A DNA stretch of 64,000 nucleotides, from IMG/VR virus record IMGVR_UViG_3300027985_000557, positions 3,046-67,045 of that record; one strand, written 5' to 3'. The notes under the pieces are model-generated. The model saw only the letters and a program-made list of their open reading frames with translations. It searched no databases and was not told the origin of the DNA. This DNA is from a virus. The number at the start of each line of letters is the position of its first letter. Positions within the stretch are counted from its first letter, which is position 1. Positions 2,500 through 57,913 of this stretch are shown here, piece by piece. The translations under genes were made by a program, and so were the position numbers.

Positions 2500-4026
2500 A
2501 TGAGTCTGAGTAGCAACCCGCGTTTGCAGAAGGTAGTAGGCCATGAAAAGATCATTATCACCGGCCTCATCGTGTCGGACACGTTCTGCCAGCAGATTGT
2601 GCCGATACTCGACTTCAACATGTTCGAACAGACGTGGATGCGCGCCCTTGTTGTGAAGTGCGTGGCATACTACGAAGAGTACCACGCCTCCCCGAAGCAA
2701 AGTGTCATCTCGCTGTTTGAAGTCCTGCAAGATGAACTGAGCGAAACAGAAGCGGACCTTATCGCTACGTTCCTTGAGATGCTGTCCACGGACTACGCCA
2801 AGATTGAGGCATCGTTCAATGAACAGTTCTACATCGACGAAGCGGACATGTTCGTCAAGAAGAAGTCTTTGGAGGCGCATATCAGCCGCATCCAAAGTAT
2901 GATCGTCATGGGCAAAACGGAAGATGCCTACGCTCTGGCGAACAACTTTAAGCCTCATGCCCTCAACGGGCACACGAACGGCTTCTGGCGGTTGCGTGAG
3001 GACACCAGCTATGTGAAGATAACACACGCGGACGAGGAAACCAGCGACAGCCGCATCGTACTGGAGTACCCCGGGGCCGTGGGTCGTTTGATCGGCCCTT
3101 GTCGGCGTGGATGGCTGGGCGCTTTCCTGGCCCCCATGAAACGTGGCAAATCCAACTTTCTCATGGAATCAGCGGTCCTGGGCGTGCTGAGGGGGCGCAA
3201 GGTATTCGTCGCCCTGCATGAGATGAAAGAGGATGAATGGTTCGACCGCCTGCTGCTGAATATCAGCGGCGGCGTCTACGGCGACAACACGGCCCTGAAC
3301 ATGCCTGTGTTCGACTGCCTGTCCAACCGCGAGGGCACGTGCATCAAGACCTTCCGCATAAACAAGGAGCCCTACGGCAAAGGGAGCAACCCCCGGTACA
3401 TGGCATGCAATGTCTGTGAACGGGTCAAGGATGGCGGGCACAAGCCCTGTGTGTCCTTTCCGCTCACGGAGTTTCCCCGGCTGAAAACGACGGATGCTAG
3501 ACGCATAACCCAAAGTTTCGGGGCCAGTGCCGGTGGCGACATCATACTTAAGAAGTATGACGCCAACACCGCCAACAGCAAAACGCTCTACCGAGATTGG
3601 CAGTACCTCGCAGATTCTGGCGACGTGTGTGACATCATAATTTCTGACTACGCGGACATCCAAGGCCCGGAAGATAAAGGGCAGGTTGATTCTATCCAGC
3701 GCATCGACGCTACGTGGCTCGGACTGAAGTGGTTGGCGGACACCACGAATGCACTTACACTCACGGCCACGCAAGGCAAACTCAAATCCTTGACTGCTGA
3801 CGACATCGGGCAGGACGACGTGTCCGGGTACATCGGCAAGGCGGCCCATGTTGACTTCATGGTGGGCCTGTCACAAACCAAGGAAGAGAAGTCGCAGGGC
3901 ATTATGCGCCTCAGCAACCTATATCACCGATTTGCGTCCTGTAACGACAACACATGTTGTTCAGTACTCCAGCGCCTTGACTGCGGAAAGTACATTCTTG
4001 ACAGTAGGATGGGAAAGGTGGCCTAA
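2500..4026 (+). CDS. dnaB: Replicative SF4 (DnaB/gp41-like) helicase
   Basis: Walker A APMKRGKS, HEM motif 1a, IISDYAD Walker B, LTATQ, VDFMVGL; Cys-rich insertion. Confidence 0.85.
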   Translation: MSLSSNPRLQKVVGHEKIIITGLIVSDTFCQQIVPILDFNMFEQTWMRALVVKCVAYYEEYHASPKQSVISLFEVLQDELSETEADLIATFLEMLSTDYAKIEASFNEQFYIDEADMFVKKKSLEAHISRIQSMIVMGKTEDAYALANNFKPHALNGHTNGFWRLREDTSYVKITHADEETSDSRIVLEYPGAVGRLIGPCRRGWLGAFLAPMKRGKSNFLMESAVLGVLRGRKVFVALHEMKEDEWFDRLLLNISGGVYGDNTALNMPVFDCLSNREGTCIKTFRINKEPYGKGSNPRYMACNVCERVKDGGHKPCVSFPLTEFPRLKTTDARRITQSFGASAGGDIILKKYDANTANSKTLYRDWQYLADSGDVCDIIISDYADIQGPEDKGQVDSIQRIDATWLGLKWLADTTNALTLTATQGKLKSLTADDIGQDDVSGYIGKAAHVDFMVGLSQTKEEKSQGIMRLSNLYHRFASCNDNTCCSVLQRLDCGKYILDSRMGKVA

Positions 4027-31813: not shown

Positions 31814-32389
31814 TTATGCGGCCCGGTAAAAGGGACCGATAAGGCGGTAGAGGACACCGTCCCACCATTTTGAGATGTCAGGCGGCTGTGGAGCGAAGCC
31901 TTGCGGGGCAGAAGTCTTGCGTTTCAGCCCGGCATATTCAGTAGCGAAGCCGAAGGCTTCCGAGCAGAACAGTTTCTCGTCGTCTTCTCGCACGCGGCCC
32001 ATGATTTGCTTGAACAGATCAGGATAATCATAAGGAGTCTGCTTCAGCATCATGTCCATGAGGTAAAAGCGGAAAGCTTCTTGGACCTCGACGGTCAAGC
32101 CGTGCGGAACGAACAGGTAAAGGGTTCCTTCAAAGTCCCGGAAATAGTGGCTGAGGTATGTCGGGGTCAACCCGTGTTCCAGAGCCTCGATGAGAGTGAC
32201 CCGCTCTTCGCGAACCATGTTCGCAGGGTAGCGCACCACCGGAGCTGCGTGACTGCAATAGGCATCGTGCCCTTCAAAGCACCGAATGGCTTTCCCCAAC
32301 GGGCTGGAGGAAGCCGTAAGGATGCAGGAGCCGGTGACGCACAGGTCACGGCCGCCTTCCAGATAGGGGATGTCAATGATGGCGGGCAC
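31814..32389 (-). CDS. Permuted papain-like amidase (YaeF/YiiX-type NlpC/P60)
   Basis: SHA histidine precedes PYDY and LFCSE cysteine. Confidence 0.7.
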   Translation of the reverse strand: MPAIIDIPYLEGGRDLCVTGSCILTASSSPLGKAIRCFEGHDAYCSHAAPVVRYPANMVREERVTLIEALEHGLTPTYLSHYFRDFEGTLYLFVPHGLTVEVQEAFRFYLMDMMLKQTPYDYPDLFKQIMGRVREDDEKLFCSEAFGFATEYAGLKRKTSAPQGFAPQPPDISKWWDGVLYRLIGPFYRAA

Positions 32390-32398
32390 GGCGGCCTC

Positions 32399-32764
32399 CT
32401 ATTTTAACAAGGTGTTCACGACAATGGGCAAGGCGGCGGTGACCGCCGCGTCGAGTGCCGACTTGGCGATACCCCACTTCTTTTCCGTGGAATTGTTTTT
32501 GAACGCCTCCGTGGCAGTAATAGCTTGCTCGACAACGGAAGCCGCCGCATCAACTTTTGCCGTCACTGACGGATTGTCCGCTTTGGCCTTGTTCAAAAGA
32601 TCGAGCATCTTGGTGGCAGATTCGTTCAAGTAGGTGACGCCGGCCACGGCTTGCTCCTGGGAGATGACAGGCTGGACAGGGGCGGTTGTCGTCTGCGTTC
32701 CGACACAGCCGATGAAGCAAAAGGCGACGATGGTGCTGATGAGGAAAAGAATGAACAGGCGCAT
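32399..32764 (-). CDS. Lipoprotein in the lysis cassette, spanin candidate
   Basis: Signal peptide with FIGC lipobox, helical body. Confidence 0.55.
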   Translation of the reverse strand: MRLFILFLISTIVAFCFIGCVGTQTTTAPVQPVISQEQAVAGVTYLNESATKMLDLLNKAKADNPSVTAKVDAAASVVEQAITATEAFKNNSTEKKWGIAKSALDAAVTAALPIVVNTLLK

Positions 32765-32765
32765 A

Positions 32766-32930
32766 CTACTCTCCTTCGCGTACGATTAGAGGTTTTGGCA
32801 CGTAGCCGTCCGGGCCACCCCGGCCGTCATTCTGCCAGACAGTATCCCCGACCCCAAACCGAATGGCTGGCTTCCAGCAGCCAGCCATGGTGAGAGTAAG
32901 GATCAGTAGAAGGAGCGCGCTACCTTTCAG
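32766..32930 (-). CDS. Small putative lipoprotein, o-spanin candidate, start uncertain
   Basis: ALLLLILTLTMAGC lipobox-like stretch right after the endolysin; no clear start codon. Confidence 0.3.
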   Translation of the reverse strand: MKGSALLLLILTLTMAGCWKPAIRFGVGDTVWQNDGRGGPDGYVPKPLIVREGE

Positions 32931-33639
32931 GAAATGCCGTGAGCAGCGCCGCCCAAGTATACTTTCCGATGATTCCGTCGTCGTCAAGGCCGTGCTCCTT
33001 TTGGAACTTGATGACCCCGCCGTAGGTCTTCTGACCAAAAAGGCCGTCATCCTTGAGGCCGAGCTTCTTTTGGACCCAGGCCACATCGCTGCCGGCGCAC
33101 GTCAGGCTGAGAATACGCATGCCCAGCGGGTAGACCCGCAAGGATTCAGTCTGCTGCGCCGACTTAGCTATGGCGATATTGCCGGACGGCGCGGAAATAC
33201 GGAAGCCCTTGGGATTGAGGTTCAGCACGTATTTGTAGTCGAACACCGGGCAGGCTTTGTTCGCCACTTCACAATGCCCGTGATAGTGGACGATGCCGCC
33301 ATAGGCCGCATCGATTTTGTCAGCCAGAGCGCGCAGGGTAGCGAACTGCTTCTCGTTGAAGTCGGACTGCTTGAGACCGTCCAGGCAAACGGCGATGCTC
33401 CCGGTATTGTGCCCTTCCTGCGCGGCCGGAATTTCTTCCAGGCCCCGGTAGGTCGGGATGAGGGTACCTTCGCGATCGATGATGTAGTGGTAGCCCGTCG
33501 TGCGGAAGCCCCGGGCCACGTGCCACGAGGTAACAGCGTCCAGGAGCTTTTTGCCCATCAGGTCGCCGTTGCCGTAGGCGGTGCAGTGCAGGAATACACG
33601 GGTCACAAGGCGTTTCGGTTTCGTGAACTCGATTGTCAT
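32920..33639 (-). CDS. Endolysin: N-acetylmuramoyl-L-alanine amidase plus peptidoglycan-binding domain
   Basis: FLHCT, WH..RGF..GYHY, GH.E...KACP; C-terminal DG.FG..T...FQ..GL..DGIIG..TW; GGAGG RBS before 33639. Confidence 0.92.
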   Translation of the reverse strand: MTIEFTKPKRLVTRVFLHCTAYGNGDLMGKKLLDAVTSWHVARGFRTTGYHYIIDREGTLIPTYRGLEEIPAAQEGHNTGSIAVCLDGLKQSDFNEKQFATLRALADKIDAAYGGIVHYHGHCEVANKACPVFDYKYVLNLNPKGFRISAPSGNIAIAKSAQQTESLRVYPLGMRILSLTCAGSDVAWVQKKLGLKDDGLFGQKTYGGVIKFQKEHGLDDDGIIGKYTWAALLTAFPER

Positions 33640-33655
33640 GGTGTCCTCCATGAGG

Positions 33656-34210
33656 TTATGGGCCAGCGTGCGCCCCAGCGGCGGCAACGGCGGCCTTAAC
33701 CGCCGGAGTATTATGCCACATCCACAGGGCAACCAAGGCGATCAAAACCGCAACGCTATAGGCAATTCGTAACTCCCACTTGATGCGGTCCCATGATTCT
33801 GCCAGGGTCTTGGCTGGTTTTACTTCTTCCACAATCATAGCTTTCAGCGTGGCGACAATATCTTCCAAACATTTCTTGGTAAGGATGTCGCGGGTGTCGT
33901 CACGCTCTTTTTGGATTGTATGCCTGGAATCGCAGGCTTGGTTACGGATGCGGTGGCCCTCGTCGATAGCCACCTTGACCTTTTCAAGAATCTCGATAAT
34001 GTCAGAAGACTGCCCTTCGGTAATCTCCCGAAGGGCGTCTATGATGGTCTGGCGAGTCGGCTCGCTCTGCGCCATATCAACGATACGCTGAATCTGCTGC
34101 GTCACCAGGGCAAGCAGTTGTGATTGCTTGTTCTGGGTTTCTTGAAATGGAAGCAGAACGGACTGAAGTAGACTGACAAGCTCCCTCAGTTCATCGACTC
34201 CTGCCATCAT
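33656..34210 (-). CDS. Coiled-coil protein with C-terminal TM helix, holin/antiholin candidate
   Basis: Heptads then IAYSVAVLIALVALWMW; directly upstream of the endolysin. Confidence 0.6.
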   Translation of the reverse strand: MMAGVDELRELVSLLQSVLLPFQETQNKQSQLLALVTQQIQRIVDMAQSEPTRQTIIDALREITEGQSSDIIEILEKVKVAIDEGHRIRNQACDSRHTIQKERDDTRDILTKKCLEDIVATLKAMIVEEVKPAKTLAESWDRIKWELRIAYSVAVLIALVALWMWHNTPAVKAAVAAAGAHAGP

Positions 34211-35082
34211 CCACCTTCCATTTTTGCGAGCATTCTTTCCGTCTCGAACAAGGTGGAAAAGGCCTCGTCCGTCTTCTCCTTGATTTCCTGGTGCTGATCA
34301 CTCATGCGATTGCGGGCCAGTTCAAGGAGTTCCTTTGTCCGCTGATGGCGGTACGTTGTGTCACGGCCCACACACTGCACTTCCGTAACATGTCCTTGGA
34401 CGTTGCGAATTGCACTAGCCCGCCATGAAATCCACCGACCATTCATTGTAAACTCCCCGCCATCAGCGATCTCGCACTGGTTGGCGAGGACGCGCCCCAC
34501 CGTAGTGAACTGCTGTTTGGCGGCCCCGTCGAGGTAATCGCCTATCAGCGTCCCTTGCATTTCACCTTCGATCATATTGCAAAGATCGGCAAAGGATTTG
34601 TTCACAAAGGTTACAATCCCGTTTGGGCGGAACCTGCAAATATAGTCTGGTGTAAGATTTACAACAGAATCGTAAAGTTGGCAACGGTCTTGAAGTTGTT
34701 TTTCCATCTCCCATTTTTCGACCGTCAATATCAAGATTAGGGGGAGAGCTGAAATATCACATTTGCGTACATAGGAAGACGCGCCCGCATGGATACTGGC
34801 CTTGGCGATGTCTATATTGTCCGTCCCCGTCAGCACGATAATGGGGATATTCGGGCACATCTCCCGGACGGCCCGTACCGAGTTGATGCCAGTACTATCC
34901 GGCAGCATAAGATCGACAAGGACAACGTCAAGGCATCCCTGATCCATCAATTTTCGGGCTTCTTCCAATGTGTGACACGGAGTATAGATATAGTCTTCCG
35001 ACGGCAAGTTCTTTGCCAACAAGGAACGGACGATATGGATTTGGATTTCACTGTCTTCTATGTGCAGAACACGGAAGCTCAT
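34207..35082 (-). CDS. Response-regulator receiver + PAS/PAC + coiled-coil protein
   Basis: VLHIEDS, VLVDLMLPD, IIVLTG, GASSYVRK; PDYICRF..NG..TFVN ... VGRDTT; GGAGG RBS before 35082. Confidence 0.88.
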   Translation of the reverse strand: MSFRVLHIEDSEIQIHIVRSLLAKNLPSEDYIYTPCHTLEEARKLMDQGCLDVVLVDLMLPDSTGINSVRAVREMCPNIPIIVLTGTDNIDIAKASIHAGASSYVRKCDISALPLILILTVEKWEMEKQLQDRCQLYDSVVNLTPDYICRFRPNGIVTFVNKSFADLCNMIEGEMQGTLIGDYLDGAAKQQFTTVGRVLANQCEIADGGEFTMNGRWISWRASAIRNVQGHVTEVQCVGRDTTYRHQRTKELLELARNRMSDQHQEIKEKTDEAFSTLFETERMLAKMEGG

Positions 35083-35083
35083 G

Positions 35084-35470
35084 CTACCCTCCTTCCCCAG
35101 AGGCGGCTGCGCCTTCTGGGCGTCTTCGCGGACCACCTGCCTTCGGTGGTGCGGACGGACTAAAGAAGGAATCAGCTATTCCGCTTAATGCCGTATCGGA
35201 CCCAAGCATGCACCCTTCGCTCTTGGCCTCAATGTTCTTCTGCCACCCTTTGGCGAACAAGGCCGCTACTGCTCCAAGAAGACCGGTGAAGTCAGTTAAG
35301 TTAAGGGGAATAAATTCCTTCTTCTCGATACATACAATCTTCCAAACTGAGATTACCTCCATGAATAGGTAAATACTGGCCGCCACAGTCATCATTGTCA
35401 TTATGCGCATGCTCGAAAGCCGTTTACGGTCATCCGTAAACGGCTCGAGAAGTTTGGTGAAAAATGTCAT
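35084..35470 (-). CDS. Putative holin with two hydrophobic segments
   Basis: KRLSSMR then two TM-like stretches and a charged tail; first gene of the lysis cassette. Confidence 0.55.
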   Translation of the reverse strand: MTFFTKLLEPFTDDRKRLSSMRIMTMMTVAASIYLFMEVISVWKIVCIEKKEFIPLNLTDFTGLLGAVAALFAKGWQKNIEAKSEGCMLGSDTALSGIADSFFSPSAPPKAGGPRRRPEGAAASGEGG

Positions 35471-35483
35471 ACGGCCCCTCCAA

Positions 35484-35765
35484 TTATCGTTCGCTCACCT
35501 TAATTTTCGCAGAACGCTCACAGGTTTTGCCGTTATTGGTAACAATCTTACAGGTTACGATGTAAGAATTACCCGCAGTCCCTCCAGATAGCCATAGCGT
35601 CACCATGCTATCCGTAAATTCGTAACTGTCAATGTCTATTCCATCAGTGACCGTGAGGGTAACTGATTTGATCGTATCCTGCGAATTAAGCCATCCTGAC
35701 CAATCAAAGAAATAGTCCAGGATGTCACTCGGATCTTTGGCGCTTGGCCAACTGCTGATTCCCAT
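35484..35765 (-). CDS. Phage fibre-adaptor protein
   Basis: KDP...LDY.FDW..WL ... WLSGG..G..Y.VTC.I.T. Confidence 0.7.
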   Translation of the reverse strand: MGISSWPSAKDPSDILDYFFDWSGWLNSQDTIKSVTLTVTDGIDIDSYEFTDSMVTLWLSGGTAGNSYIVTCKIVTNNGKTCERSAKIKVSER

Positions 35766-36235
35766 TATGCATGCTCCCACACAAAGGTTAATCCGTCGTT
35801 GACCATGTTGATCGTCCCTTCCAGAACGGTACGGGCAACCCACAGGCGCACGTAGCTTCCTGCTGGAATAACCGGACAAATCAGGCGCGAATCAACAGTG
35901 TAGGCGGCAAAGCTGCCGGTTATCGGAGGGGCAGTAGTCTCGTTCGGGATAGAAGTCACCGAGTCTATCGGGGAGTCTTCCAGCCCAAAGAGCGCATCCG
36001 TACCCGGGCTTGGGGTGCCAGAACAGTAGATGGTAACATTGTGCGCTTCATCATCACCAGAATTTAATATGTCAACCGCGCGATATTCGATACCACCAGC
36101 CGAGGATTCAGCAGGAAGCACGTCATCAAAGAGGTTGTTGATTGGTACATCCGAAAGCTGTTCTTCCGAAGCGGCCCCGCCCAAGCTCATGCCATTCGTA
36201 AGCGCGCTCAAATGAAGTTCAAGAACGGAGGGCAT
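35765..36235 (-). CDS. Virion structural protein
   Basis: SLGG...NNLFDDV...G.EYR...LWVART pattern common in fibre modules. Confidence 0.6.
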   Translation of the reverse strand: MPSVLELHLSALTNGMSLGGAASEEQLSDVPINNLFDDVLPAESSAGGIEYRAVDILNSGDDEAHNVTIYCSGTPSPGTDALFGLEDSPIDSVTSIPNETTAPPITGSFAAYTVDSRLICPVIPAGSYVRLWVARTVLEGTINMVNDGLTFVWEHA

Positions 36236-36253
36236 TACTATTCTCCTTGCTGG

Positions 36254-37507
36254 TTAATTATCAATCACGACAGTTCTGCTTTCTGCCACAATGCGCACTA
36301 TTCTGCTTTCTGTCGCGATGCGTATTGTTCGGTTATCTTCTGCGACCACAACCATTCTGACAGCAATCGGAGTGGATACGCGGACTATCCCGACATTCCA
36401 CAACGATTGCTTTTCCTTCTTTATACGGATGTTCCATACAGATCCCCGTGTATTCAACAAATGAATATTCCATCGAGATGTATGGCTGCTCCGTGTGCCT
36501 ATATTCCAGTTAGCCTGATGTTCTGTTTTTAGGGTAATATTCCAGGCACTACCGGTACTATTCTGTACCTTGATGTCCCATCCTGTCGCCTTTGTTTTTT
36601 GAACAAGGTTGTTCCAGTACGCCCCCTGCTGACGTGCGGTATAAATATTCCATGAGGATTCTTTGGTACTCTTCGCTAAAACATTCCACTGTGATGCTGT
36701 AGCATCTGTTGTTCGCACATCCCAGCGGGAGTTAAGGGCATATGAAGTAAGTGAAGTAATAGCGAAGAATAATCGATTTTTCTTAAATATCTGGTATGGA
36801 TTATTTTCAAGTTCTTTTAGTTCATCATAAGAAAGAAGACGGTTATATAATAACTGCGGACCAAAGATTGCATTGAGTGGTTCGCCCAACCAATTGATGT
36901 TATGGTTTCCAAAGCAAAGGGTGGCCCCTGCTCCAAACGAAAGTGGCTGAGCCGAAATAATCTTATCGTACAGTCCGCCAAGTCTGCTATAAAACCTCGC
37001 TGTAGAGGGGCTAAATCCACCAGAGTATAAATTTATCTCAGTATTTATTTCGAGAGCGCCAGAACTTAGGGTAAAAGATTGATAAGAAGATGACGCAGTC
37101 GCTGAACCAATTTGCAATCCAGTAGAAGCGGCATTTCGACAAAGGCTACAGCCGTACGGCCAGTTCCAGTTAGAGGTAGAATATGGAATAGAGCAAAATG
37201 TAGCATAGGACGGACTATACGACAATATTCTGCTAAAACTAACAAAGTTGATTTCAGTAGTGATCTTATCGAGAACGCTAGGAGGCATGGTGATGTAAGC
37301 ACAATCATAGGAGCCGCCTCCCGTATAGAAAGTGCCATCATCGTTCATGCCAGCCGAGGTATAGAACATTAGCGCATTATTGGATATTCTGTCTAATCCA
37401 CCATCAACGAAAACGAGTAATCCAGAAGCTAACGGATGACTCCAGTCGATGAGTGCCCCATGCGGAGGGGGCACCCGCCACCTTGATTTACGGAATAGAC
37501 CTGCCAT
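36254..37507 (-). CDS. Fibre-like protein: LamG/concanavalin-like head plus 12-residue W(N/D) repeats
   Basis: IDWSHPLA.GL and YNRLLS..E...NPYQ; ten Trp at 12-residue spacing; AT-richer than the genome. Confidence 0.65.
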   Translation of the reverse strand: MAGLFRKSRWRVPPPHGALIDWSHPLASGLLVFVDGGLDRISNNALMFYTSAGMNDDGTFYTGGGSYDCAYITMPPSVLDKITTEINFVSFSRILSYSPSYATFCSIPYSTSNWNWPYGCSLCRNAASTGLQIGSATASSSYQSFTLSSGALEINTEINLYSGGFSPSTARFYSRLGGLYDKIISAQPLSFGAGATLCFGNHNINWLGEPLNAIFGPQLLYNRLLSYDELKELENNPYQIFKKNRLFFAITSLTSYALNSRWDVRTTDATASQWNVLAKSTKESSWNIYTARQQGAYWNNLVQKTKATGWDIKVQNSTGSAWNITLKTEHQANWNIGTRSSHTSRWNIHLLNTRGSVWNIRIKKEKQSLWNVGIVRVSTPIAVRMVVVAEDNRTIRIATESRIVRIVAESRTVVIDN

Positions 37508-37508
37508 G

Positions 37509-37865
37509 CTATATGCTCGTAAGTTCGTGTCCCACGCATTCGACAGTAACGCTTTGCCCGGTGTTACCGGAGAAGATAGCTCTGGCGTACATGAACTCTT
37601 CAGAAATAGAGAATGGAATATCCTTTACGGCGTTAGCTGCCACAGAAGCAGTAACGCTGAATAATTTACGCCATGTCACGCTGTCGTTGCTTACTTCGAC
37701 AGTAAACGTACAACCAATCGTCGGCCCAGTAGCTCCGTTCGTGATACGGGCCACACCGCCCAGGCCGAAAGCCGTGGTAAGGTCTATGGCGCTCCCTGTC
37801 GTAGTGGCACCGGCCGCATTCGTCGCGGAAGCCTGGAGAACCCGAGCGGTCTTTACGATAGCCAT
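37509..37865 (-). CDS. Virion structural protein, beta-rich
   Basis: GGAGG RBS; VEVSND..TW; in fibre module. Confidence 0.6.
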   Translation of the reverse strand: MAIVKTARVLQASATNAAGATTTGSAIDLTTAFGLGGVARITNGATGPTIGCTFTVEVSNDSVTWRKLFSVTASVAANAVKDIPFSISEEFMYARAIFSGNTGQSVTVECVGHELTSI

Positions 37866-46354: not shown

Positions 46355-49300
46355 CTATGACCCGGAAATGCGTTTCAACGTCCTGTTATTGCTCGCTATG
46401 ATGTTCATTACGACCTTCTGCCCGGCCGTGGTCCCCAGAGCGTCAAGGACCATCTTGGGGTCCGTGACGTTGATGATATTCACGGCCGAGGAACCCCCAC
46501 CCGTCGAGCCTTGCGAGGATACCCCCAGGTTGCCCTGGCTGTCCCGCTTCAAGGGGAGGATGGCCTCCGGGCCTTTCTCGCCCAGGACACCCAGCGCCCC
46601 GGCCCCGCCCTTTGCGAACTTGAACACATGCGGAGTATTGAATACCCCGCCGTTGGCGAACGCATAGGCCCCTCCAGCAAAGGCTGCGCCCCTGGCAAAG
46701 AACTGCGCGCCGCCATGGCTAAAGCCGCCGCCCTTGGCGAATAGTGACCCAATAGCACTGAATAATCCGCCGAGCAAGCCCCCGCCGCCGAGCAAGCCCC
46801 CGCCGCCGAGCAAGCCCCCGCCGCCGCTACTGCCCCCGCCAAACAGTGAACTGAACAACGAGGTCAGTGTGCTGATGAGTGAAGAAAAAATATTCGTGGT
46901 GCCGCTAGACCAATCACTGAAGGTGTTCTTGGACTCTTCAGCAAACTGTGCCACATCCGCGCCCATGGCGTAGGAGTTCGCAGTCATGGCCGTGGCCGCT
47001 GCGTCCATGGTGCCGGACCCCGCCGCCCCCGTAGCGCCAGCTACAGCATTCGCTACCGAGCTACCTGCACTCCCTGCGCCGGTCAAGTTGGCCGTGGACA
47101 GCGCCGTGGTCAAACCCTGGATAGCGATCGTATTTGCGCCTGTAGCCGCAGTGTTCGCCGTCTGTGCGGAAGCCGCTGCCGTGTCCCCGGCCCCGCCGAG
47201 GCCACTGATCAGACTACCCGAGTCAAAACCGAAGGCCCCGCCGACGCCCTTGAGCATGCTGGACATCATGTTATTCAGGCCAAATTCAATGAACCGCTTG
47301 CCGATGTTCTTCAGCATACTGGCGATGGACTCTTCGGCTGTCTTGGTACCGTCGATGAGTCCTTCAATCATGTCACCCAGGCCCGACTTGATGTCGTCCA
47401 GGGTACCCTTCATGAGTTCTACGACCTGCTGGCCGGTAGTCTTCTGTTCAGCAAGCCATTCAGCAAGACCGAGCTTCATTTGGTCGTACATGGAGCCTTC
47501 GATCTCAATGCGCTTCTTGGCGTACTCCAGCGCACTGATCTGCCCCTCGTTGTACTTCTGCTTGAGCAAGGACATGTACTCGCTTTCGGACATAATGCCG
47601 TAGGCGTAGTAATCGTCCATGTACCGCTTGCGCGCGTCGTACAGGCTCTTCTCGTAGCTGACGTTCGCGGCAGCCAGTTCGGCCCTCTTGTTATTGAGAT
47701 CCGTCTCCAGCTTTTTCTTGGCGTCCGACCCTTCCTTCTCAAGGGCCAGTTCACGCTGAATCTCAGCGATCTCGGCGTTGACCGACGCCACCTTGGCCGA
47801 GTGTTTCTTGCGCTCGATGTCTTGGTAGTAGGTGAAGCTATCATTCATGCCCGCGATTTCGAGATCATCGCGAGACTTGTTCAGAGCGATGCTTGTTTCG
47901 GCCGCCTGTTTGTCGAACTTCTTCTTGGACTCAATCTGCTGCGCGTAGAGGATGAGCAGTTCCTTGTTGGCGGCGTTCTGCTCTTTCTCGGCAGAGTCGA
48001 TGTCGGTTTCCGACTTGGCCTTGGCACGCATCTGATCGGCGACGGCCACGTACTCCTTGGCTGTCTCGATCTTCTTTTCAATGAGGGCAATCTCCGCTTC
48101 TTCGGCAGAGGTTTCCCCCTTGGCAACGGAAAGACGGGACTGTGCCTCTTCCAGTTCCATAAGAGACTTTAGGTTGGCGATGCGCTTGCGCTCAGCCTTA
48201 AACACATCCCCGTGCCCGCCTGCCAGGGAGTTGAGTGATTTAACATGCGCTCGCTCAGCCCCGGTCGCTTTATTCGTGGCCCCTGTGAGTCCTTCCGTTA
48301 CCGACTGGACCGCCGGGATAAGCTGAATAACCGGGAGATTGAATTGTTCGCCGAACAATGTCCTGAGTGCGGACATCATTCCTTCGTAAATCTTCAGGAC
48401 AGCGTTCGCATTGTCTATGTTCTGCTGCTGCCACTTCTCATTATTTTCTTTGTTCGCGAGTGCCCCGGCACCGTCCGTCTTAGCGATGGACTGCTCGACG
48501 TTAGCAAGGGCGTCAGCATTCGCCTGCTTCTGGGCCTCCAGTTGCAGCTTGTACGGCTCGAGAACAGCCTTAGCGACTTCATCAAGGGCCTTGAGCTTTG
48601 CGTCACGCTCTTCTTTGGCCGCAGCTTCCTGCGTCTGCTTACCTTCAGCGACAGCCTTATTAATCTTATCCTGGGCATCGTTGTAGGCGGTAACCGCCTC
48701 GTCGATATATCCCTTGCGCAGGACGGCGTTCTCACGTTCAGCTTCCGTCCCGGTCTTCATGGTTTCTTGAAGTTTCTGGTAAGCGGAGGTCACGCCGTCA
48801 ATGTTTAAGCTCTTGAGCCCTTCATCGACTTTGGCCTGGGCAGAAGCCATGGCTACTTCCGCTTCAGCCGCCTTCTGGGTATTGCCGGCGAGTTCAAGCA
48901 CCCGCTGCGCCATGTCGTTGGGCATCTTGTCAAGGAATGCCTGAGCCATGGCCCTGGAGGCCTCGTCGCCCGCGTCCCGCAGCTTCTTGACATACTCGAC
49001 AGCATTCGCAACAGCGGTGCGCTGTTTATTCGTCGCCTCAGTGTACTCCGCCGCGTTCTTCTTCGGATCGCTTACCGTCGCAGCATCACCAGCCTCGACC
49101 GCTCCAACGTGGGCGTCACTACGGATGTTCTGGAGCTGCTGCTGCCCCTTCTTAAAAAGGGCGATGTCCGCATCAATGGCGGCTTTCATCTCATCGGTGT
49201 GCCCCGTCGCCTTTTTGGCAATCAAGGCGTCGATGGCGGCGAGGTAGTCCTTGGTGGAAGCCGTCGCCAAGTCCAGGGTGTTCGCCAACTCAGGAAAAGC

Positions 49301-51877
49301 GGCAAGGAGGCGCACTGTCTGCTGCTGCCAGAGTTCACCGCCCTCTTTGGCCGATCCAATGCTTCCCTTGTATCGCTCAAGCTCCGTAACTTGCTTCTCA
49401 AGAGAAGTAGCCAGTTCCGAGTGCTTCTTGATCGCCTTTTCTGTGGAAGTGCCGATGTCGGACAGGGCGTAAGCAAGGCCGCCAAGGGCCACAACCCCGG
49501 CGGCGACCCAGCCCCATACCGGAACAGCCGCCAAGGCAACGGTGGCGCTCTCAAATCCAGCGGTAGCCAAAGCCGCACTGCCGAGGGGGCTTACAAGAGT
49601 CCCAATCTTAGCCCCGAAGGCGACAAGGGCATCAAACGACATGGCGACTTTGAGGGCGCGAAATGCCGTCGTTGCCAGCCCGACCGCAACGGTAAGGGCC
49701 GCGAGCTTGATGATGAGGCCGCCCACCGCGCTTTCCGCGAAGGTATTCATCGCGGTCATCGTGCTATTGATGATGTCGAGGATGCCGCCGAACACGTTCG
49801 CAATGCCGTTCTCACCAAGGGTAGCCATGAGAACGGCGAACTTATTCTTCACAAGATCAATCTTCGCACCAAGGCCCTGCATCTGCGTTTGGGCCATCTC
49901 ATGCGCGGCACCAACCTCGTTAAGAGCGAGACTGAACTCCTGAACTTGCTTGGCCGATGAGGCAAGCTGAATAGCAGCGTTACCCGCCCGCGTCCCGAAG
50001 ATGTCATAGAAATTGGCATTCCGCTGCAAAAGAGTGCCGAGATTCTCAAGAACGGTACCGTAGCTGTTCTGCTTGAGGTTGAAGTCATTCAAACTCATGC
50101 CGGCTTTAACCACGGCCGTTGTGAACTTACCGGACCCTTCACCAAGAATCTGAAAGATCTGCCGCAGGCCCGTACCAATAGTGGAAGCCCGGAGGCCCGC
50201 ATTGGCAAGGGACATGGTGGAAGCCGTGGCATCCTTGAAGCTGATGCCTGCCTGACGGGCGGCCACGCCGACGTAGTTGTACGCCGTGTTCAGCTTATCA
50301 ACGTCGAGCTTCGACTTGTTGATAGCGACGGCCAGGGCATCGACCACCTCGCCGGATTGAGCGGCATCCATATTGAAGGCACGGATAATCGTCGTGACAA
50401 GATTCGTGGCCTTGCCCATATCCGACATGGTGCCCGTGGCAAGTTCGGTTACCGATCCGATAGTTTGCATCGTCTCGGTCGCACTGAAACCGGCTTGGGC
50501 AATCTCGGTCATGCCCCCGGCGATGTCTTTGATCCCTTTATTGGACCTGGCTGCGACGTTCTTGAGCGTGTCGCCCATGCGGCCCATCTGTTCGTCAGTG
50601 GCTCCGGAGATGGACTGGAGATTACGGAGAGACTGGTCGTACTCGACAATGGCCTGCGAAGCCTTGTAGATGCCGGTGATCAAGGCGGTAGCGATAGCGT
50701 AGGAAGCCATCGTCTTGAACGCATTGGCGACTCGGGTCACGGCCCCTTGAAGCGTACCCATGATGCCCGTGGCCTGCCGTGAAGCCGTGACGGTCTTACC
50801 CATCTCGGCGGCGGCTTCTGTCTGCACTTTTCCGTGCCGGGCAGTCGCCTCATTCAAAACCTGGGCAGAAGAAGTGAGGGCATTGTACTCCGTTCCGAGA
50901 GTCTTGGCCCTGGATGCCGACCGGAGCTGTTCCTCTCCGACCGCCTGAATGTTCTTGTAGAGTGCCTTATACATCCCCGAGTTGCTGCCGTAATCCTTGG
51001 CAACCGCGACGGCGGCTTCCTGGTACTGGCGGCCATACTGCCCCAGGTCTTTGAGGCCTCTGGCGTAGTCAAGAACACCCTTCTTCGCAGCGGTCATGCC
51101 CGTGGACATGTTGGCCGTAGAAGTGGATACCTCGACAAGGCCGTCCCGAGTCATCTTGGTGACGCCGGCCGCGTTACGCTCTGCCTCGGACAAAACCTGA
51201 CGAGACGAGGAGAGCTTCTTGTACTCATCCCCCAACAAGGCGGACTTCTGGGCGGCAATGGCCTGGGACGCGGCGACGTTTTTAATGCCGACCGCAACGG
51301 CCTCGAATTGAGCCGTACCGGCTCCGTACTGCTCGGCGGCGCGCTTTACTGCGTTGCTGTAGACCGTGCCGTAAGACCCGACCTTTTGAATCGCTTTCAG
51401 GTAGCTATTGGTGCTGTTCACACCATTTTCCATGGTGTTGTTCAGCAAGGCGAAGCGGTCCTGCGATTGATACCACGCATTGCCCGCCGAACCCATGGTC
51501 CTACTGGTCTTGTAGAGCTGCTTCTCGAGCTTGTCCAGAACAGCGAACTGTTCCTTCCACGCGGTGGACCCCTGCTGGATACCGCGTTCAGCATTTTGAG
51601 CGGAGAGCTTTTTGACGGCGTCGGAGTAGGCCTCGGTCTGCGCCGAGAGCCGCGTCATGGAGGAAGACTGAGCATCTGCCGCCTGTCCCGCTTTACGAAG
51701 AGAACCCGACAACGCGGCGAGCTGCCCTTCAAGGCGAGAAGAGACGTTGTAGACCTTGTTCATGGCAACCTTGAGGTTGCCAATGGAATTATCCAGCAAA
51801 GCCAGGGCGGAAGACAGACTCTTGTCCATCTTGCCCACAATGCTCAGCAGGAGCTGCTGCTCAGTCTTCCCTGCCAT
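46355..51877 (-). CDS. Tape measure protein
   Basis: 1840 aa, Ala/Gly-rich helical; TP901-like core (LANAG..ASTIGTGLR); C-terminal FA.GG and GEKGPEAILPL. Confidence 0.93.
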   Translation of the reverse strand: MAGKTEQQLLLSIVGKMDKSLSSALALLDNSIGNLKVAMNKVYNVSSRLEGQLAALSGSLRKAGQAADAQSSSMTRLSAQTEAYSDAVKKLSAQNAERGIQQGSTAWKEQFAVLDKLEKQLYKTSRTMGSAGNAWYQSQDRFALLNNTMENGVNSTNSYLKAIQKVGSYGTVYSNAVKRAAEQYGAGTAQFEAVAVGIKNVAASQAIAAQKSALLGDEYKKLSSSRQVLSEAERNAAGVTKMTRDGLVEVSTSTANMSTGMTAAKKGVLDYARGLKDLGQYGRQYQEAAVAVAKDYGSNSGMYKALYKNIQAVGEEQLRSASRAKTLGTEYNALTSSAQVLNEATARHGKVQTEAAAEMGKTVTASRQATGIMGTLQGAVTRVANAFKTMASYAIATALITGIYKASQAIVEYDQSLRNLQSISGATDEQMGRMGDTLKNVAARSNKGIKDIAGGMTEIAQAGFSATETMQTIGSVTELATGTMSDMGKATNLVTTIIRAFNMDAAQSGEVVDALAVAINKSKLDVDKLNTAYNYVGVAARQAGISFKDATASTMSLANAGLRASTIGTGLRQIFQILGEGSGKFTTAVVKAGMSLNDFNLKQNSYGTVLENLGTLLQRNANFYDIFGTRAGNAAIQLASSAKQVQEFSLALNEVGAAHEMAQTQMQGLGAKIDLVKNKFAVLMATLGENGIANVFGGILDIINSTMTAMNTFAESAVGGLIIKLAALTVAVGLATTAFRALKVAMSFDALVAFGAKIGTLVSPLGSAALATAGFESATVALAAVPVWGWVAAGVVALGGLAYALSDIGTSTEKAIKKHSELATSLEKQVTELERYKGSIGSAKEGGELWQQQTVRLLAAFPELANTLDLATASTKDYLAAIDALIAKKATGHTDEMKAAIDADIALFKKGQQQLQNIRSDAHVGAVEAGDAATVSDPKKNAAEYTEATNKQRTAVANAVEYVKKLRDAGDEASRAMAQAFLDKMPNDMAQRVLELAGNTQKAAEAEVAMASAQAKVDEGLKSLNIDGVTSAYQKLQETMKTGTEAERENAVLRKGYIDEAVTAYNDAQDKINKAVAEGKQTQEAAAKEERDAKLKALDEVAKAVLEPYKLQLEAQKQANADALANVEQSIAKTDGAGALANKENNEKWQQQNIDNANAVLKIYEGMMSALRTLFGEQFNLPVIQLIPAVQSVTEGLTGATNKATGAERAHVKSLNSLAGGHGDVFKAERKRIANLKSLMELEEAQSRLSVAKGETSAEEAEIALIEKKIETAKEYVAVADQMRAKAKSETDIDSAEKEQNAANKELLILYAQQIESKKKFDKQAAETSIALNKSRDDLEIAGMNDSFTYYQDIERKKHSAKVASVNAEIAEIQRELALEKEGSDAKKKLETDLNNKRAELAAANVSYEKSLYDARKRYMDDYYAYGIMSESEYMSLLKQKYNEGQISALEYAKKRIEIEGSMYDQMKLGLAEWLAEQKTTGQQVVELMKGTLDDIKSGLGDMIEGLIDGTKTAEESIASMLKNIGKRFIEFGLNNMMSSMLKGVGGAFGFDSGSLISGLGGAGDTAAASAQTANTAATGANTIAIQGLTTALSTANLTGAGSAGSSVANAVAGATGAAGSGTMDAAATAMTANSYAMGADVAQFAEESKNTFSDWSSGTTNIFSSLISTLTSLFSSLFGGGSSGGGGLLGGGGLLGGGGLLGGLFSAIGSLFAKGGGFSHGGAQFFARGAAFAGGAYAFANGGVFNTPHVFKFAKGGAGALGVLGEKGPEAILPLKRDSQGNLGVSSQGSTGGGSSAVNIINVTDPKMVLDALGTTAGQKVVMNIIASNNRTLKRISGS
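46767..46820. repeat. Three 18-bp tandem repeats inside the TMP
   Basis: CCGCCGAGCAAGCCCCCG x3, encoding GGGGLL. Confidence 0.85.
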
Positions 51878-55174: not shown

Positions 55175-55875
55175 TACGCCGCCCCCAGCTTTCGGGTCAC
55201 CGAAACCATGGCATCATTGGCCTTGGCGAGTTCTTCGGCATCGAACTTCTCCACCGAAAAGGTCTTAATGAACGACGTCATAGTCGGCTCCATTTCGAGC
55301 CCAGCAAGGCCACAAAGGCGCTTTGCCAGGGCGGCGGCCCGGCGGTAGTCCCCGGGCGCAACCATGGATCCGCCATACGACTTCTCGTAGGCCGTATGCC
55401 ACGCGCAGCGCAGGTACGACCGCTCATACAGGTCCAGGCCGGGCCAGATTCCTTCGATGTTAATGCGCGAATCTTCCGGGCAGTCGGTCATGATCAAGGG
55501 ACGGGACAGGTGCGCCCGTCCGTCCGGGTACAAGGCGTTTGACACGATAAGTTCATCAATAGGCCGCGCCGTCTGCAAGAAGATCGGAGTCAGTCCGAGC
55601 GGATTATCTTCGAAAAACTGACGGGCATGGATGTACCCCGGGGCCTTGATGACAAGGGCGTTCCCCTCTTCAGCGCACCAGTAATCCCACAACTTGCTGA
55701 GGCCGCTGTAATTCTTGGCGGCGATGGCCGCGTGCATGACCTGGGGCGGCTCGTTGGTATGCTTGGGGTGCGGGTCCGCACATCCCTTGATCTTGGAATG
55801 TGCGAGCAGACACCGCATAAGAAACGTGGTCCTGGAGCGCGGCGCTCCGCCGATGACATACAAAAACTTATTCAT
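55174..55875 (-). CDS. Sulfotransferase-family protein
   Basis: VIGGAPRSRTTFL..LL.H (5'-PSB-like), K.P, R.....SN (3'-PB-like), RLC...GLE. Confidence 0.65.
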   Translation of the reverse strand: MNKFLYVIGGAPRSRTTFLMRCLLAHSKIKGCADPHPKHTNEPPQVMHAAIAAKNYSGLSKLWDYWCAEEGNALVIKAPGYIHARQFFEDNPLGLTPIFLQTARPIDELIVSNALYPDGRAHLSRPLIMTDCPEDSRINIEGIWPGLDLYERSYLRCAWHTAYEKSYGGSMVAPGDYRRAAALAKRLCGLAGLEMEPTMTSFIKTFSVEKFDAEELAKANDAMVSVTRKLGAA

Positions 55876-57913
55876 TGGTGATTCCCTTGTCAGCAAGAGT
55901 GGTCAGCAGGGCCGCGCGCACGGCCTCCGGCTTAATGGTGTTGATGCATGGCGTCTTGCAGGGCCGCCGGCTAGGCGCTCCCCAGCACGTGGTCAGAATG
56001 GGACAGGCATCAAGGCGGTTGGGCTCCAGGTTGACGATGACCCCGTTGTCATCCCTGGGGTGGGTGACCCGGGCCGGGGCTGGGCCGTACAGGACCACGG
56101 CCGGCGTACCGAGCGCCCCGCACAGGTGGGCCGGAAAGCTATCAATCACGACGCCGGCCGTGGCGTGCCCGACAACCCAGGCGCTCTCCTGAAATGAGAG
56201 CTTTCCCCGAAGGTCCAGCGAGGCATAGCGACACAGCGGATCTTCATGGCTACCGATCTGAACGACGGGCAAGGGCGTGCCGGCCAGCACCAGATCCATA
56301 TGCTCGTAGGTTCGATATTCCTTGCTTCCGCCGGCCGTCTGCACGATTATGTACTTCTCGGGCAAGGCGTCTGCGTGAAGTTCCGGGCGCTGCTTCGTGA
56401 TGCGCACCGTGTCCGCTTCCAATTGCCCACAGAAGTATGGATACATCTCGTAGAGCGCGGTATCAAGGGAGTTGAATCCTCCTGTTACGATGCGCTCCCC
56501 GTGCGGGTTGTAAACGATGGAATACCGGCGCATCATGTCCGGATTCCAGTCGATAACTTCATCCAGGTCCGGATGGTCTTCCACGATGTTGTGGAACTTC
56601 TTCTGCGTCATGTAAACAAGGCGCTTGCCGGGGTGCTTCTTCTTGAGTCCTTTGAAGCACTGCGTGGTCATGAGCACGTCCCCGGCGGCGCTATGCTGGG
56701 CGAACAAAACGGCGTCTATCTGGTCCGACGCCGGGCTTATGGAGTTGCTGAGGACGCGGTCGATGTGTGCGTTGATGTCCATGGTCCCGGAAAGCCACTT
56801 CACGGCCTGCTCAATCCCAATGCGGCTCAGACGGTGGCGAACGTCGGGTTGAAGCATGAAGCCAATAGCCTTGGCGATAGCTTCGGGCCGACAACTCTTA
56901 ACGCGGGTGAACCCATCGCCGTGGGCCGTCGGAACCGGCACCATGTAAGGCACCGTGAGGCCCACGTAGATGCCTGCGTCTTCGACGAGCTCCCGATGCG
57001 CCGGGCAGTTCGACACAATAACCGGGACACCGCACTTCATGGCTTCCAGGGGCGTGTAGGACAGGCCCTCGAATGCCGAGCACATGACGATCATGTCCAT
57101 GGCGTTGTAGACCTGAACAAGGCGATTAGTCGGATAGGAGTAAATGGCCTGATCCTTAGCGAGCACGGCACCCTTTCGGATGCCCGCGTCCGCGCAAAGC
57201 TGCGGAAGGTTGAACACGCCCTGCATGTTGGTGTGCAGATAGAGGTGTAGGCGCTCGTCCTTGGCCGCCGCGAGAGCGAACCCCTCGATAAGACCCATGG
57301 GATCTTTACGGAACTGGTTGTTTCCAACGAATCCCACAATGATGGCCTCATCTGACAGATGAGGAAATGATGTCCGACGCCCATATTCACGAGCTATTTG
57401 CGACCGGGCAAAGAAGTCCAGGTGTGGGGCGGGTGGCCGGAAGTAAGCGCTGGAATTGAGGTACGGGGCTACCAGCCCATGCCCGCTTTCCGAATAAATC
57501 AGGACGTGGTCGAATACCGAGAACCATACCAGCCAATCCTGGCGCAAGGTCGGCAGGTCGTAGGGGGCAAGGCACATGGTCTTGAAGCTGTGTGCTTGAG
57601 CCATACGGAGCATTTCCGGGTAGATATGGGCATAGCGCCATACGTCCAACCCGACGAAAAACACGAGGTCAGGACGGATCGTGTTTATGGTGGAAAGAAG
57701 TTTCTTCCCACCCCAGGGGTCGCGGTCGCTGTGCGAAGAAACGATGGGAAAAGACATGATGGTGTCGAAGAGGGTGTCGGGAGCCGGGTCACCGTAAGCG
57801 AAAATGGCAATCTCATGCTGAGAAGCATCGATGGTGGACAGAATGCCCGCCATCATGTTGCCTGTTCCGCTCCCACAATAGGGATGTTCGCCGACAATAA
57901 GGATCTTGGACAT
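55868..57913 (-). CDS. Bifunctional glycosyltransferase: GT4-like plus GT9 (heptosyltransferase-like)
   Basis: VG.N..RKD and EGLSYTPLEAMKCGVPVI; GDVLM...LKKKHP and IDS.PAHL.GALGTP.VVLYGP. Confidence 0.88.
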   Translation of the reverse strand: MSKILIVGEHPYCGSGTGNMMAGILSTIDASQHEIAIFAYGDPAPDTLFDTIMSFPIVSSHSDRDPWGGKKLLSTINTIRPDLVFFVGLDVWRYAHIYPEMLRMAQAHSFKTMCLAPYDLPTLRQDWLVWFSVFDHVLIYSESGHGLVAPYLNSSAYFRPPAPHLDFFARSQIAREYGRRTSFPHLSDEAIIVGFVGNNQFRKDPMGLIEGFALAAAKDERLHLYLHTNMQGVFNLPQLCADAGIRKGAVLAKDQAIYSYPTNRLVQVYNAMDMIVMCSAFEGLSYTPLEAMKCGVPVIVSNCPAHRELVEDAGIYVGLTVPYMVPVPTAHGDGFTRVKSCRPEAIAKAIGFMLQPDVRHRLSRIGIEQAVKWLSGTMDINAHIDRVLSNSISPASDQIDAVLFAQHSAAGDVLMTTQCFKGLKKKHPGKRLVYMTQKKFHNIVEDHPDLDEVIDWNPDMMRRYSIVYNPHGERIVTGGFNSLDTALYEMYPYFCGQLEADTVRITKQRPELHADALPEKYIIVQTAGGSKEYRTYEHMDLVLAGTPLPVVQIGSHEDPLCRYASLDLRGKLSFQESAWVVGHATAGVVIDSFPAHLCGALGTPAVVLYGPAPARVTHPRDDNGVIVNLEPNRLDACPILTTCWGAPSRRPCKTPCINTIKPEAVRAALLTTLADKGITNE

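Follow-up and report, generated by a model that had tools for sequence, protein, structure and literature searches.

A receiver-PAS protein and its tail-anchored partner in phage lysis cassettes: a candidate accessory regulator built from two-component parts

Why would a phage carry a protein made of a two-component receiver and a PAS domain between its holin and its endolysin? The question is raised by a 64,000-base stretch of viral DNA (the window), which covers positions 3,046 to 67,045 of the linear, 67,045-base IMG/VR record IMGVR_UViG_3300027985_000557 (estimated completeness 58%). An earlier note on this DNA had described a receiver-PAS gene (REC-PAS) within the late lysis genes, followed by a gene for a protein with a coiled coil and a C-terminal transmembrane (TM) segment (CC-TM), and had proposed that the two might time lysis; this interpretation is supported in part. 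The analysis reported here points to the REC-PAS/CC-TM pair as an accessory regulator of the lysis cassette that was built from two-component parts, a reading to which a probability of about 0.5 is given. That the pair works with the lysis machinery is, judged from sequence, probable.

The open reading frames (ORFs) proposed for this region were all confirmed, as was their location on the minus strand. They encode, in order, a holin-like small membrane protein of 128 amino acids (aa) (35084..35470), assigned on the basis of two hydrophobic segments and its position; the REC-PAS protein of 291 aa (34207..35082, ATG at 35082), which matched the Pfam families Response_reg, PAS_4 and PAS; the CC-TM protein of 184 aa (33656..34210), a tail-anchored helical membrane protein recognised from its ORF and from homologues downstream of REC-PAS in other phages; and the endolysin (32920..33651), an N-acetylmuramoyl-L-alanine amidase (Amidase_2) with a PG_binding_1 domain, for which the proposed amidase identity was borne out by Pfam and by PHROG amidase/endolysin families. 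The spacing is tight. One nucleotide lies between the stop codon of the holin-like gene and the REC-PAS ATG, which is preceded by a strong AAGGAGG; REC-PAS and CC-TM share the 4-nt ATGA overlap that had been noted previously; and 4 nt separate the CC-TM stop codon from the probable amidase ATG. Scans for promoters and terminators gave no excess over shuffled sequence (7 vs 4.9 ± 1.8 and 10 vs 6.0 ± 2.7, respectively).

The evidence that carries the proposed reading is the recurrence of this gene pair in other phages. Genomic context came only from IMG/VR records, which contained three further phages with a full-length REC-PAS relative (28-44% identity). REC-PAS overlapped a CC-TM homologue directly downstream in all four visible contexts, always among lysis genes; the overlap was 4 nt in the window, 1 nt in L001 and 14-38 nt in L157 and L158. 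The synteny on which the earlier note had staked its proposal was conserved: rather than being absent from relatives or located at random positions, the gene lay among lysis genes in four of four contexts, on at least three phage backbones.

The cassettes around the pair differ considerably. L001 (G001) is the same as the 106-kb record L003, which has an estimated completeness of 100%, and the phage recurs, with identical ORFs, as L002 from another sample. Its REC-PAS protein is 44% identical to that of the window, its CC-TM homologue matched that of the window with a BLASTP value of 1e-8, and its gene order is i-spanin-like, lipoprotein, REC-PAS, CC-TM, holin-like (86 aa), GH108 + PG_binding_3 endolysin and Gp80-type fibre, the i-spanin-like product being a coiled-coil protein with an N-terminal TM segment and a weak DUF2570 match whose gene overlaps the lipoprotein gene. 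L157 (G002), an 87-kb record (estimated completeness 91%), encodes a 334-aa REC-PAS protein with 28% identity to that of the window, in the order Amidase_2 + PG_binding_1, 108-aa membrane protein, Rz-like protein, lipoprotein, REC-PAS and CC-TM, after which genes on the opposite strand follow; the Rz-like product is a coiled-coil TM protein (phrog_739, E 0.0011) whose gene is overlapped by the lipoprotein gene. In L158 (G003), a 63.7-kb record with terminal repeats (estimated completeness 100%), the REC-PAS protein has 31% identity to that of the window and the order is terminase, Amidase_3, holin-like, the cell-wall hydrolase Hydrolase_2, Rz-like (phrog_89, E 0.0065), lipoprotein, REC-PAS and CC-TM. 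Endolysin type (four catalytic families), holin position, gene order and neighbouring modules therefore all change around a conserved pair, and a small holin-like membrane protein is encoded separately in all four cassettes.

The backbones differ as well. The major head protein of the window matched that of only one of the three other records, G002 (53% identity), and its DNA polymerase matched G002 (38%) and, weakly, G001 (30% over 190 aa); G003 matched neither protein. The pair was thus found with lysis genes across at least three phage backbones. Because the G001 REC-PAS protein is closer to that of the window (44%) than is the protein of the related phage G002 (28%), the module appears to move between phages and yet to stay with lysis genes.

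A distant fifth case was found in L165, to which L166 and L169 are near-identical. Its 315-aa REC-PAS protein is related to the family over the receiver, the linker and the first half of the PAS domain (hhalign probability 99.4%, columns 3-195) and is followed by a helical, 176-aa protein with one TM segment, for which a relation to CC-TM was undetectable (probability 0.4%). Divergently oriented beside it are a lipoprotein gene, a homologue of a 191-aa protein that closes the window operon, and a holin gene (phrog_36209, 9.4e-9; phrog_13712, 7.5e-7).

No further family contexts were obtained from IMG/VR scans with the single protein, with the CC-TM alignment A2 or with the subgroup alignments A6 and A7, and scans of metagenomes and species genomes with patterns tuned to the close subgroup returned only L003, together with generic REC or PAS proteins. 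Among GenBank phages there was no DNA match to the window and no protein match for its REC-PAS, CC-TM or holin-like proteins, or for the L165 REC-PAS protein; the L157 and L158 REC-PAS proteins matched receiver-only pieces that covered at most 45% of the query.

Base composition suggests how the window phage obtained these genes. GC content at third codon positions (GC3) is 0.54-0.60 in the holin-like, REC-PAS and CC-TM genes, compared to 0.77 in the amidase gene and 0.71-0.90 in the tape measure and head genes. The low GC3 common to all three suggests that the holin-like/REC-PAS/CC-TM trio was acquired as one block. The block of lower GC3 as a whole extends from 33656 to 37865 (0.41-0.60 vs 0.67-0.90 in the flanks); it comprises the genes for CC-TM, REC-PAS, the holin-like protein and a Gp77-like adaptor plus three ORFs of the tail/fibre region, and its composition suggests a recombinant segment.

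Selection could be approached from one population sample. Between the window and the relatives with known context, protein identity is 28-44% and synonymous sites are saturated, and the relatives with 64-72% identity are known as proteins only. A relative of the window phage was present in one run (X3) as short contigs, mostly 90-99% identical. The four cassette genes with coverage showed at least 27 synonymous and at least 8 non-synonymous codon changes, of which at least 3 and at least 2 (T64V, R283K), respectively, fell in REC-PAS. Taken over the entire cassette, these counts fit purifying selection.

The REC-PAS protein itself was then compared with domain families. Response_reg matched residues 5-108 with 58.9 bits (cut-off 30.2; E 6.8e-16), and the match was confirmed on the genome DNA (60.8 bits); PAS_4 (PF08448) matched residues 142-247 (2.9e-7; 31.1 bits, cut-off 23.1), and PAS (PF00989) also scored above its cut-off (1.7e-6; 28.5 bits vs 22.6). 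No DNA-binding or enzymatic output domain was found with Pfam, in which REC and PAS were the only families to match; the lack of a kinase, helix-turn-helix (HTH) or GGDEF output in the earlier description was upheld. REC-PAS is consequently not a classical response regulator, which by definition joins a receiver to an effector domain.

An AlphaFold2 (AF2) model was built on 11 relatives and had a predicted local distance difference test score (pLDDT) of 79.1. The receiver (residues 1-106; 34765..35082, minus strand; PF00072) was modelled as a (beta-alpha)5 fold with strands at 3-8, 31-36, 53-57, 81-85 and 103-106, helices at 12-25, 39-47, 66-75 and 90-98, and then alpha5. In Foldseek comparisons it superimposed on the NtrC1, ArcA and KdpE receivers with a root mean square deviation of about 2 Å. 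A linker helix (residues 107-141; 34660..34764, minus strand) extends alpha5 of the receiver into the PAS domain (residues 142-241; 34360..34659, minus strand), which was modelled at 147-241 with five strands (147-151, 156-160, 209-213, 216-226 and 232-241) and ends in the GRDTT PAC motif that had been read from the sequence. The sole candidate output element is the C-terminal helix (34210..34359, minus strand): the coiled-coil tail expected from the earlier description was recovered in the AF2 model as a helix, and its length, put there at about 35 residues, was revised to about 48 (a single helix, 243-290). The top structural and profile relatives were the dual-sensor histidine kinase 6oaq, DgcR (6zxm) and NtrC1-type receivers.

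The receiver active site is complete in the window protein, with E9, D10, the phospho-acceptor D57, T85 and K107, in agreement with the catalytic set claimed earlier. Conservation was assessed in a family assembled in two steps. A word-indexed search gave 11 full-length relatives of 291-304 aa and 41-72% identity (alignment A1). A profile search then covered 1.84 billion cluster representatives, and among its best 150 matches, which were examined, were many multi-domain proteins and 11 stand-alone proteins of 287-303 aa that matched end to end; ten new stand-alone proteins were combined with the first 11 in alignment A3 (n = 21). Conservation in this alignment spans the receiver, the linker helix, the PAS domain and the start of the last helix. 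Each active-site residue was kept in 18 to 21 of the 21 members (E9 21/21, D10 18/21, D57 19/21, T/S85 20/21, K107 19/21), and the losses were clustered: P0011 and P0040 lack D57 together with D10 and K107, and P0029 lacks D10 alone. Losses that are so nearly all-or-none suggest that the phospho-site works in most lineages and that two carry a pseudo-receiver. Outside the active site, the linker helix carries a family-specific ALPL..LTVEKW motif (conserved columns L113, P114, L115, E122 and K123), and the C-terminal helix has seven residues that are invariant among the 11 close relatives (H246, L252, L253, A256, L278, E280 and E289).

The nearest cellular sequences place REC-PAS at the N-terminus, followed by further PAS domains and HATPase_c, or by GAF/GGDEF. 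When ten of these relatives were scanned, HATPase_c was found in five, GGDEF in two and PAS domains only in three. In build, the phage protein resembles a receiver-modulated sensor enzyme of which only the input half, up to and including the signalling helix, is present.

No solved relative was found when the PDB was searched with the single PAS sequence, and no cofactor motif was spotted on reading the alignments. With a profile of five PAS-plus-helix sequences, the PAS domains of ARNT, BMAL1 and PER were closest (8.6e-13 to 1e-8), with FixL and LOV domains far behind (E 0.002-0.004). ARNT-type PAS domains serve mainly as protein-interaction modules.

If D57 is phosphorylated, the phosphoryl group has to come from somewhere. 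No HATPase_c match over the cut-off and no Hpt match was found in G000-G003, three of which are estimated to be 91-100% complete, and control genomes matched as expected; G000 and G001 encode exactly one receiver each. The single sub-threshold HATPase_c match was an HATPase_c_3 segment (GHKL, MORC/MutL-type; 1.3e-7) at L240 1501-1755 in G003. It lies within a 2736-aa open frame, and a scan of 1085 aa around the match found no HisKA; this protein is not a canonical histidine kinase. Since no phage kinase was found, D57, if it is phosphorylated, would receive its phosphoryl group from a kinase or Hpt protein of the host or from a small phosphodonor.

The partner protein was as described earlier in having a C-terminal TM segment: one hydrophobic segment (residues 147-165; 33716..33772, minus strand; Kyte-Doolittle 1.97) is followed by a 19-aa tail. 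The AF2 model was all-helical and of low confidence (pLDDT 55.8), and the N-terminal domain has a net charge of -6, which fits a tail-anchored topology with the N-terminus inside. These features are shared, in that all eight CC-TM sequences aligned have a single C-terminal TM segment, a tail of 10-21 residues and an acidic N-terminal domain. P51, C93 and R96 are invariant in this alignment. C93 and R96 belong to a His...Cys-x-[SG]-Arg motif (residues 86-96; 33923..33955, minus strand) in the cytoplasmic part, N-terminal to the TM segment; in all eight proteins the His precedes the Cys by 4 or 7 residues and x-[SG]-R comes after the Cys, often with a further His beyond the motif. This spacing would put the His and the Cys on one face of the predicted helix; that they form a metal or redox site is only a thought.

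There was no Pfam or PHROG family for the CC-TM proteins of the window, L001, L157 and L158, and no lysis-category PHROG or Pfam match for REC-PAS or CC-TM at E ≤ 0.01. Atlas look-alikes were unnamed viral clusters with scores below 0.9; none was named. A hidden Markov model (HMM) of the eight sequences matched ORFs only in records with the full-length REC-PAS family, and gave no match in the other loci among 235 sequences (234 loci plus the window), including those with unrelated REC or PAS genes; since the four positives were part of the HMM, only the absence elsewhere is informative. A role of CC-TM as a DHp- or Hpt-like phosphotransfer partner was considered and found unsupported, there being no HisKA or Hpt match in the four CC-TM proteins or in the genomes. 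A complex prediction for REC-PAS (A1) with CC-TM residues 1-146 (A2) gave a score of 0.02 against a mark of 0.32, which counts neither for nor against contact; the fold of CC-TM is itself uncertain.

The remaining member of the trio is the holin-like protein. It has hydrophobic segments at residues 22-49 and 53-72 (Kyte-Doolittle) and a low-complexity, charged C-terminal tail (4 basic and 2 acidic among the last 25 residues), and thus the size, TM segments, charged C-terminus and endolysin-cassette position of a holin. The earlier suggestion of a holin is in line with these features. In family searches, no Pfam or PHROG family matched the window protein; its Atlas neighbours were unnamed viral clusters (score 0.92). 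It is homologous to the 86-aa protein encoded beside the GH108 endolysin of L001 (BLASTP 1e-8, phmmer 3.1e-5). The latter matched a 101-aa protein of L158 that has the same N-terminal motif (7e-7) and gave a weak match to the holin family phrog_1356 (E 0.023).

Taken together, these data are consistent with a two-gene module that would belong to the lysis cassette and might act as follows. Both proteins would be produced late, translated from the mRNA that also encodes the holin and the endolysin, and in roughly equal amounts if the overlap of the two genes reflects translational coupling. The soluble REC-PAS protein would be held at the inner membrane by docking on CC-TM, at its acidic helical domain in the cytoplasm. 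The state of REC-PAS would be set by phosphorylation of D57, with a histidine kinase or Hpt protein of the host, or acetyl phosphate, as the donor, and/or by a cue sensed by the PAS domain. Through the long helices, that state would alter the association of CC-TM with the small holin in the membrane and make the holin trigger at a different time, as an antiholin or co-holin would. We infer this route from sensor to holin because of the sensor anatomy, the coupled tail-anchored partner, the separate small holin in each cassette and the analogy with antiholins. That a membrane-tethered cytoplasmic sensor tunes holin triggering through a host phosphodonor and/or a PAS signal is, in our estimate, an even bet. 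A broader proposal is doubtful and is put forward tentatively: the pair could be a portable input to the lysis clock in several unrelated phage lineages, in which an orphan receiver-PAS protein, kept at the membrane by its tail-anchored partner, converts host phosphorylation and/or a metabolite or redox cue in the cytoplasm directly into earlier or later holin triggering, without transcription. If true, this would be the first demonstrated case of a viral receiver domain gating the formation of membrane holes, and it would give a lytic phage a route other than T4-type lysis inhibition for matching its burst to host physiology.

Several points weigh against a lysis regulator of this kind. Phosphorylation is not universally needed, because two of the 21 family members (P0011 and P0040) have lost the phospho-acceptor. 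REC-PAS contains no hydrophobic segment and so no membrane segment of its own, and the small holin-like protein exposes little of itself to the cytoplasm. Only size, topology and position led to the label 'holin' for 35084-35470. In L157 and L158 the pair is at the cassette edge, where hitch-hiking genes also gather, and co-transfer in the window is not lysis-specific because the low-GC3 block also takes in fibre genes. The five listed codon changes make the population data too thin for selection on the REC-PAS gene itself, and context was available for four records only, with about 17 more family members known as proteins alone.

The alternative that survives best, although it is unlikely, is that of a membrane-tethered decoy, in line with the phosphate sink that the earlier note had raised. 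CC-TM would park an orphan receiver at the inner membrane, where it would drain or block phosphoryl flow from a host kinase as a phosphate sink; an envelope-stress, defence or motility response would be silenced late, and the proximity to lysis genes would reflect shared late timing and membrane targeting. The intact receiver chemistry, the lack of a phage kinase or Hpt protein, the lack of an output domain and the membrane-anchored partner would all suit such a function, and a protein whose nearest cellular relatives are the REC-PAS input halves of kinases and GGDEF proteins could compete for their partners. Other phages carry two-component parts as auxiliary genes, as listed in BFVD and, for a PhoB-like gene, described in one paper (PMC8228385). 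However, a sink has no need of a conserved PAS domain or of a conserved 48-residue helix, and this explanation does not account for residence in lysis cassettes while endolysin type, gene order and backbone change, or for the window, in which it lies between the holin and endolysin genes and the spacers measure 1-4 nt.

A second alternative, which we consider improbable, makes CC-TM itself the lysis effector, a one-TM holin, pinholin or antiholin with its N-terminus in, its C-terminus out and a large domain in the cytoplasm, and REC-PAS a cytoplasmic lock that works mostly by protein contact, phosphorylation being dispensable or vestigial. The two family members without D57 and the closeness of the PAS profile to the ARNT/BMAL1/PER type, whose members act as protein-interaction modules, agree with a lock, and the L001 CC-TM protein has a very weak match to the holin family phrog_689 (E 0.018). 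N4 gp63, which is reported to be a one-TM pinholin (PMC12642591), is a precedent. On the other side, a separate small holin-like protein is already present in all four cassettes, the receiver residues kept in 18-21 of 21 members argue for a working phospho-site, and the holin PHROG match is at noise level. The least likely alternative is a hitch-hiking pair with a role outside lysis and host signalling (superinfection exclusion, for example, or another late process), kept by ancestry and tolerant cassette borders, which would agree with its place as the last cassette element in L157 and L158 and with the low-GC3, apparently acquired block of the window, but not with its location inside the cassette in the window and L001, its company of lysis genes in at least three backbones, or the holin beside even the distant L165 REC-PAS gene.

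The rest of the cassette and of the window can be described briefly. Up to about 31.7 kb, genes are on the plus strand and include those for a DnaB-like helicase, a DNA polymerase and a UvsX-like recombinase; from 31.8 kb on, genes are on the minus strand and include those for a head protease, the major head protein, a 1840-aa tape measure protein and tail proteins. The cassette forms the 3' end of this late minus-strand block and converges on the early genes. Its upstream boundary is the last structural gene before it, which encodes a Gp77-type fiber-tail adaptor (35484..35879, minus strand; PF23148, 7.3e-27). The tape measure gene (46355-51877), indicative of a long-tailed morphology, thus occurs together with an adaptor domain named after podophage GP4, and a GP4 Gp80 fibre domain is encoded at 10229-10633 of L001; GP4-type fibre modules are thus not confined to podophages. 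A 681-aa protein of the head/packaging region (55868-57913, minus strand) has a glycosyltransferase-like segment (phrog_2170, 1.4e-14).

Downstream of CC-TM, the amidase frame is open from a TTG at 33732 (32920-33732), with the ATG at 33651 as the likely start, and the endolysin has no signal or signal-arrest-release segment. The earlier note had proposed lipoproteins beyond it. This fits a 121-aa protein (32399..32764, minus strand), which lacks a Pfam or PHROG family, has an N-terminal lipobox-like signal and is a spanin candidate; the 191-aa protein that closes the operon (31814..32389, minus strand) matched phrog_1128 (6.3e-5). The 121-aa protein also has a weak C-terminal hydrophobic segment at residues 102-120 (Kyte-Doolittle 1.61) and could be a unimolecular spanin or an i-spanin; unlike L001, L157 and L158, the window has no clear Rz-like gene for a coiled-coil protein with an N-terminal TM segment. 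In another frame, an ORF at 32766-33086 (minus strand) shares sequence with the 3' end of the amidase gene and stops 1 nt short of the gene that follows. Roughly the final 50 residues of its product run from a hydrophobic stretch to a lipobox-like ...AGC and a short Pro/Gly-rich tail, and so resemble a small o-spanin-type lipoprotein; there is no ATG, GTG or TTG just ahead of the hydrophobic stretch. The phrog_1128 label of the 191-aa protein is enoyl-CoA hydratase-like. Homologues of this protein occur in L165, L166 and L169 (phmmer 3e-7), that of L165 (6801-7346, minus strand) lying between the holin and the lipoprotein, and the protein may likewise be associated with lysis.

The timing of lysis is central to phage fitness, and to our knowledge the known lysis regulators (dual-start antiholins, T4 RI/RIII and N4 gp62) have no recognisable sensory domains. 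If REC-PAS and CC-TM are such a regulator, some phages would be monitoring the signalling or metabolism of the host as infection ends, and two-component signalling would extend in viruses to a post-translational, membrane-level output. A four-gene cassette and one Asp would give a direct handle on this, and the pair would offer synthetic biology a compact, possibly signal-tunable lysis device. Full-text searches, whose coverage did not extend to supplements and subscription journals, turned up no report of a receiver or PAS protein within a phage lysis cassette and none that links a CheY-like protein, an endolysin and a holin in a phage genome; among the matches listed for the antiholin/spanin literature there was no 'PAS domain' or 'response regulator', and the REC-PAS/CC-TM arrangement was not found in a cultured phage. 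Receivers in phages are not new as such, because response regulators, PAS proteins and kinases are among the phage annotations listed in BFVD. Phage PhoB-like genes have been discussed as auxiliary genes (PMC8228385).

Among known systems, the closest in architecture are the 6oaq dual-sensor kinase and DgcR (6zxm), which share with REC-PAS an N-terminal receiver, a long helix and a spine made of a sensor domain plus helix; the phage family differs in having no DHp/HATPase_c or GGDEF domain, in standing alone at about 290 aa and in being paired with a membrane protein. In T4, RI senses superinfection in the periplasm, and RI and RIII couple the signal to holin triggering. They are accessory proteins of the kind proposed here for REC-PAS and CC-TM, but they involve no receiver, PAS domain or phosphorylation, and the window proteins match no such PHROG. 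No sequence relation of REC-PAS or CC-TM to the antiholin families RI, RIII, LydB or S107-type was detected with Pfam and PHROG (E ≤ 0.01). In bacteria, the LytSR two-component system controls the holin-like lrgAB/cidAB genes; it differs in being cellular and transcriptional, with a full kinase and a LytTR regulator, and is not in a phage cassette. VqmA-Phi of vibriophage VP882 has a PAS sensor domain. It is a DNA-binding transcription factor at the lysogeny-lysis switch, whereas REC-PAS has no HTH, has a receiver and is encoded among lysis genes.

Published work adds to these parallels. With VqmA-Phi, a phage carries its own version of a bacterial sensor and uses a host signal to time killing (PMC10426928), and T4 RIII acts in the cytoplasm while RI binds the holin (PMC8385771). 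The pinholin gp63 of N4 is reported to have one TM segment, an N-in/C-out topology and a regulatory cytoplasmic region, and the N4 lysis cassette resembles the present one in having an extra membrane regulator, gp62, and in the proposal of regulation from the cytoplasmic side (PMC12642591); gp62 differs in having two TM segments, and neither a PAS domain nor a phospho-acceptor Asp is part of the system. The 'Receiver domain' of gp63 in that paper names a stretch of gp63 and was rejected as a two-component receiver. Finally, RoeA of Yersinia entomophaga is a PhoB-like two-component-type protein that is encoded beside a phage-derived lysis cassette and controls it (PMC10101115). It consists of the winged-helix DNA-binding half only, without the phosphorylation domain, and acts on transcription (PMC10101115); REC-PAS is the opposite half.

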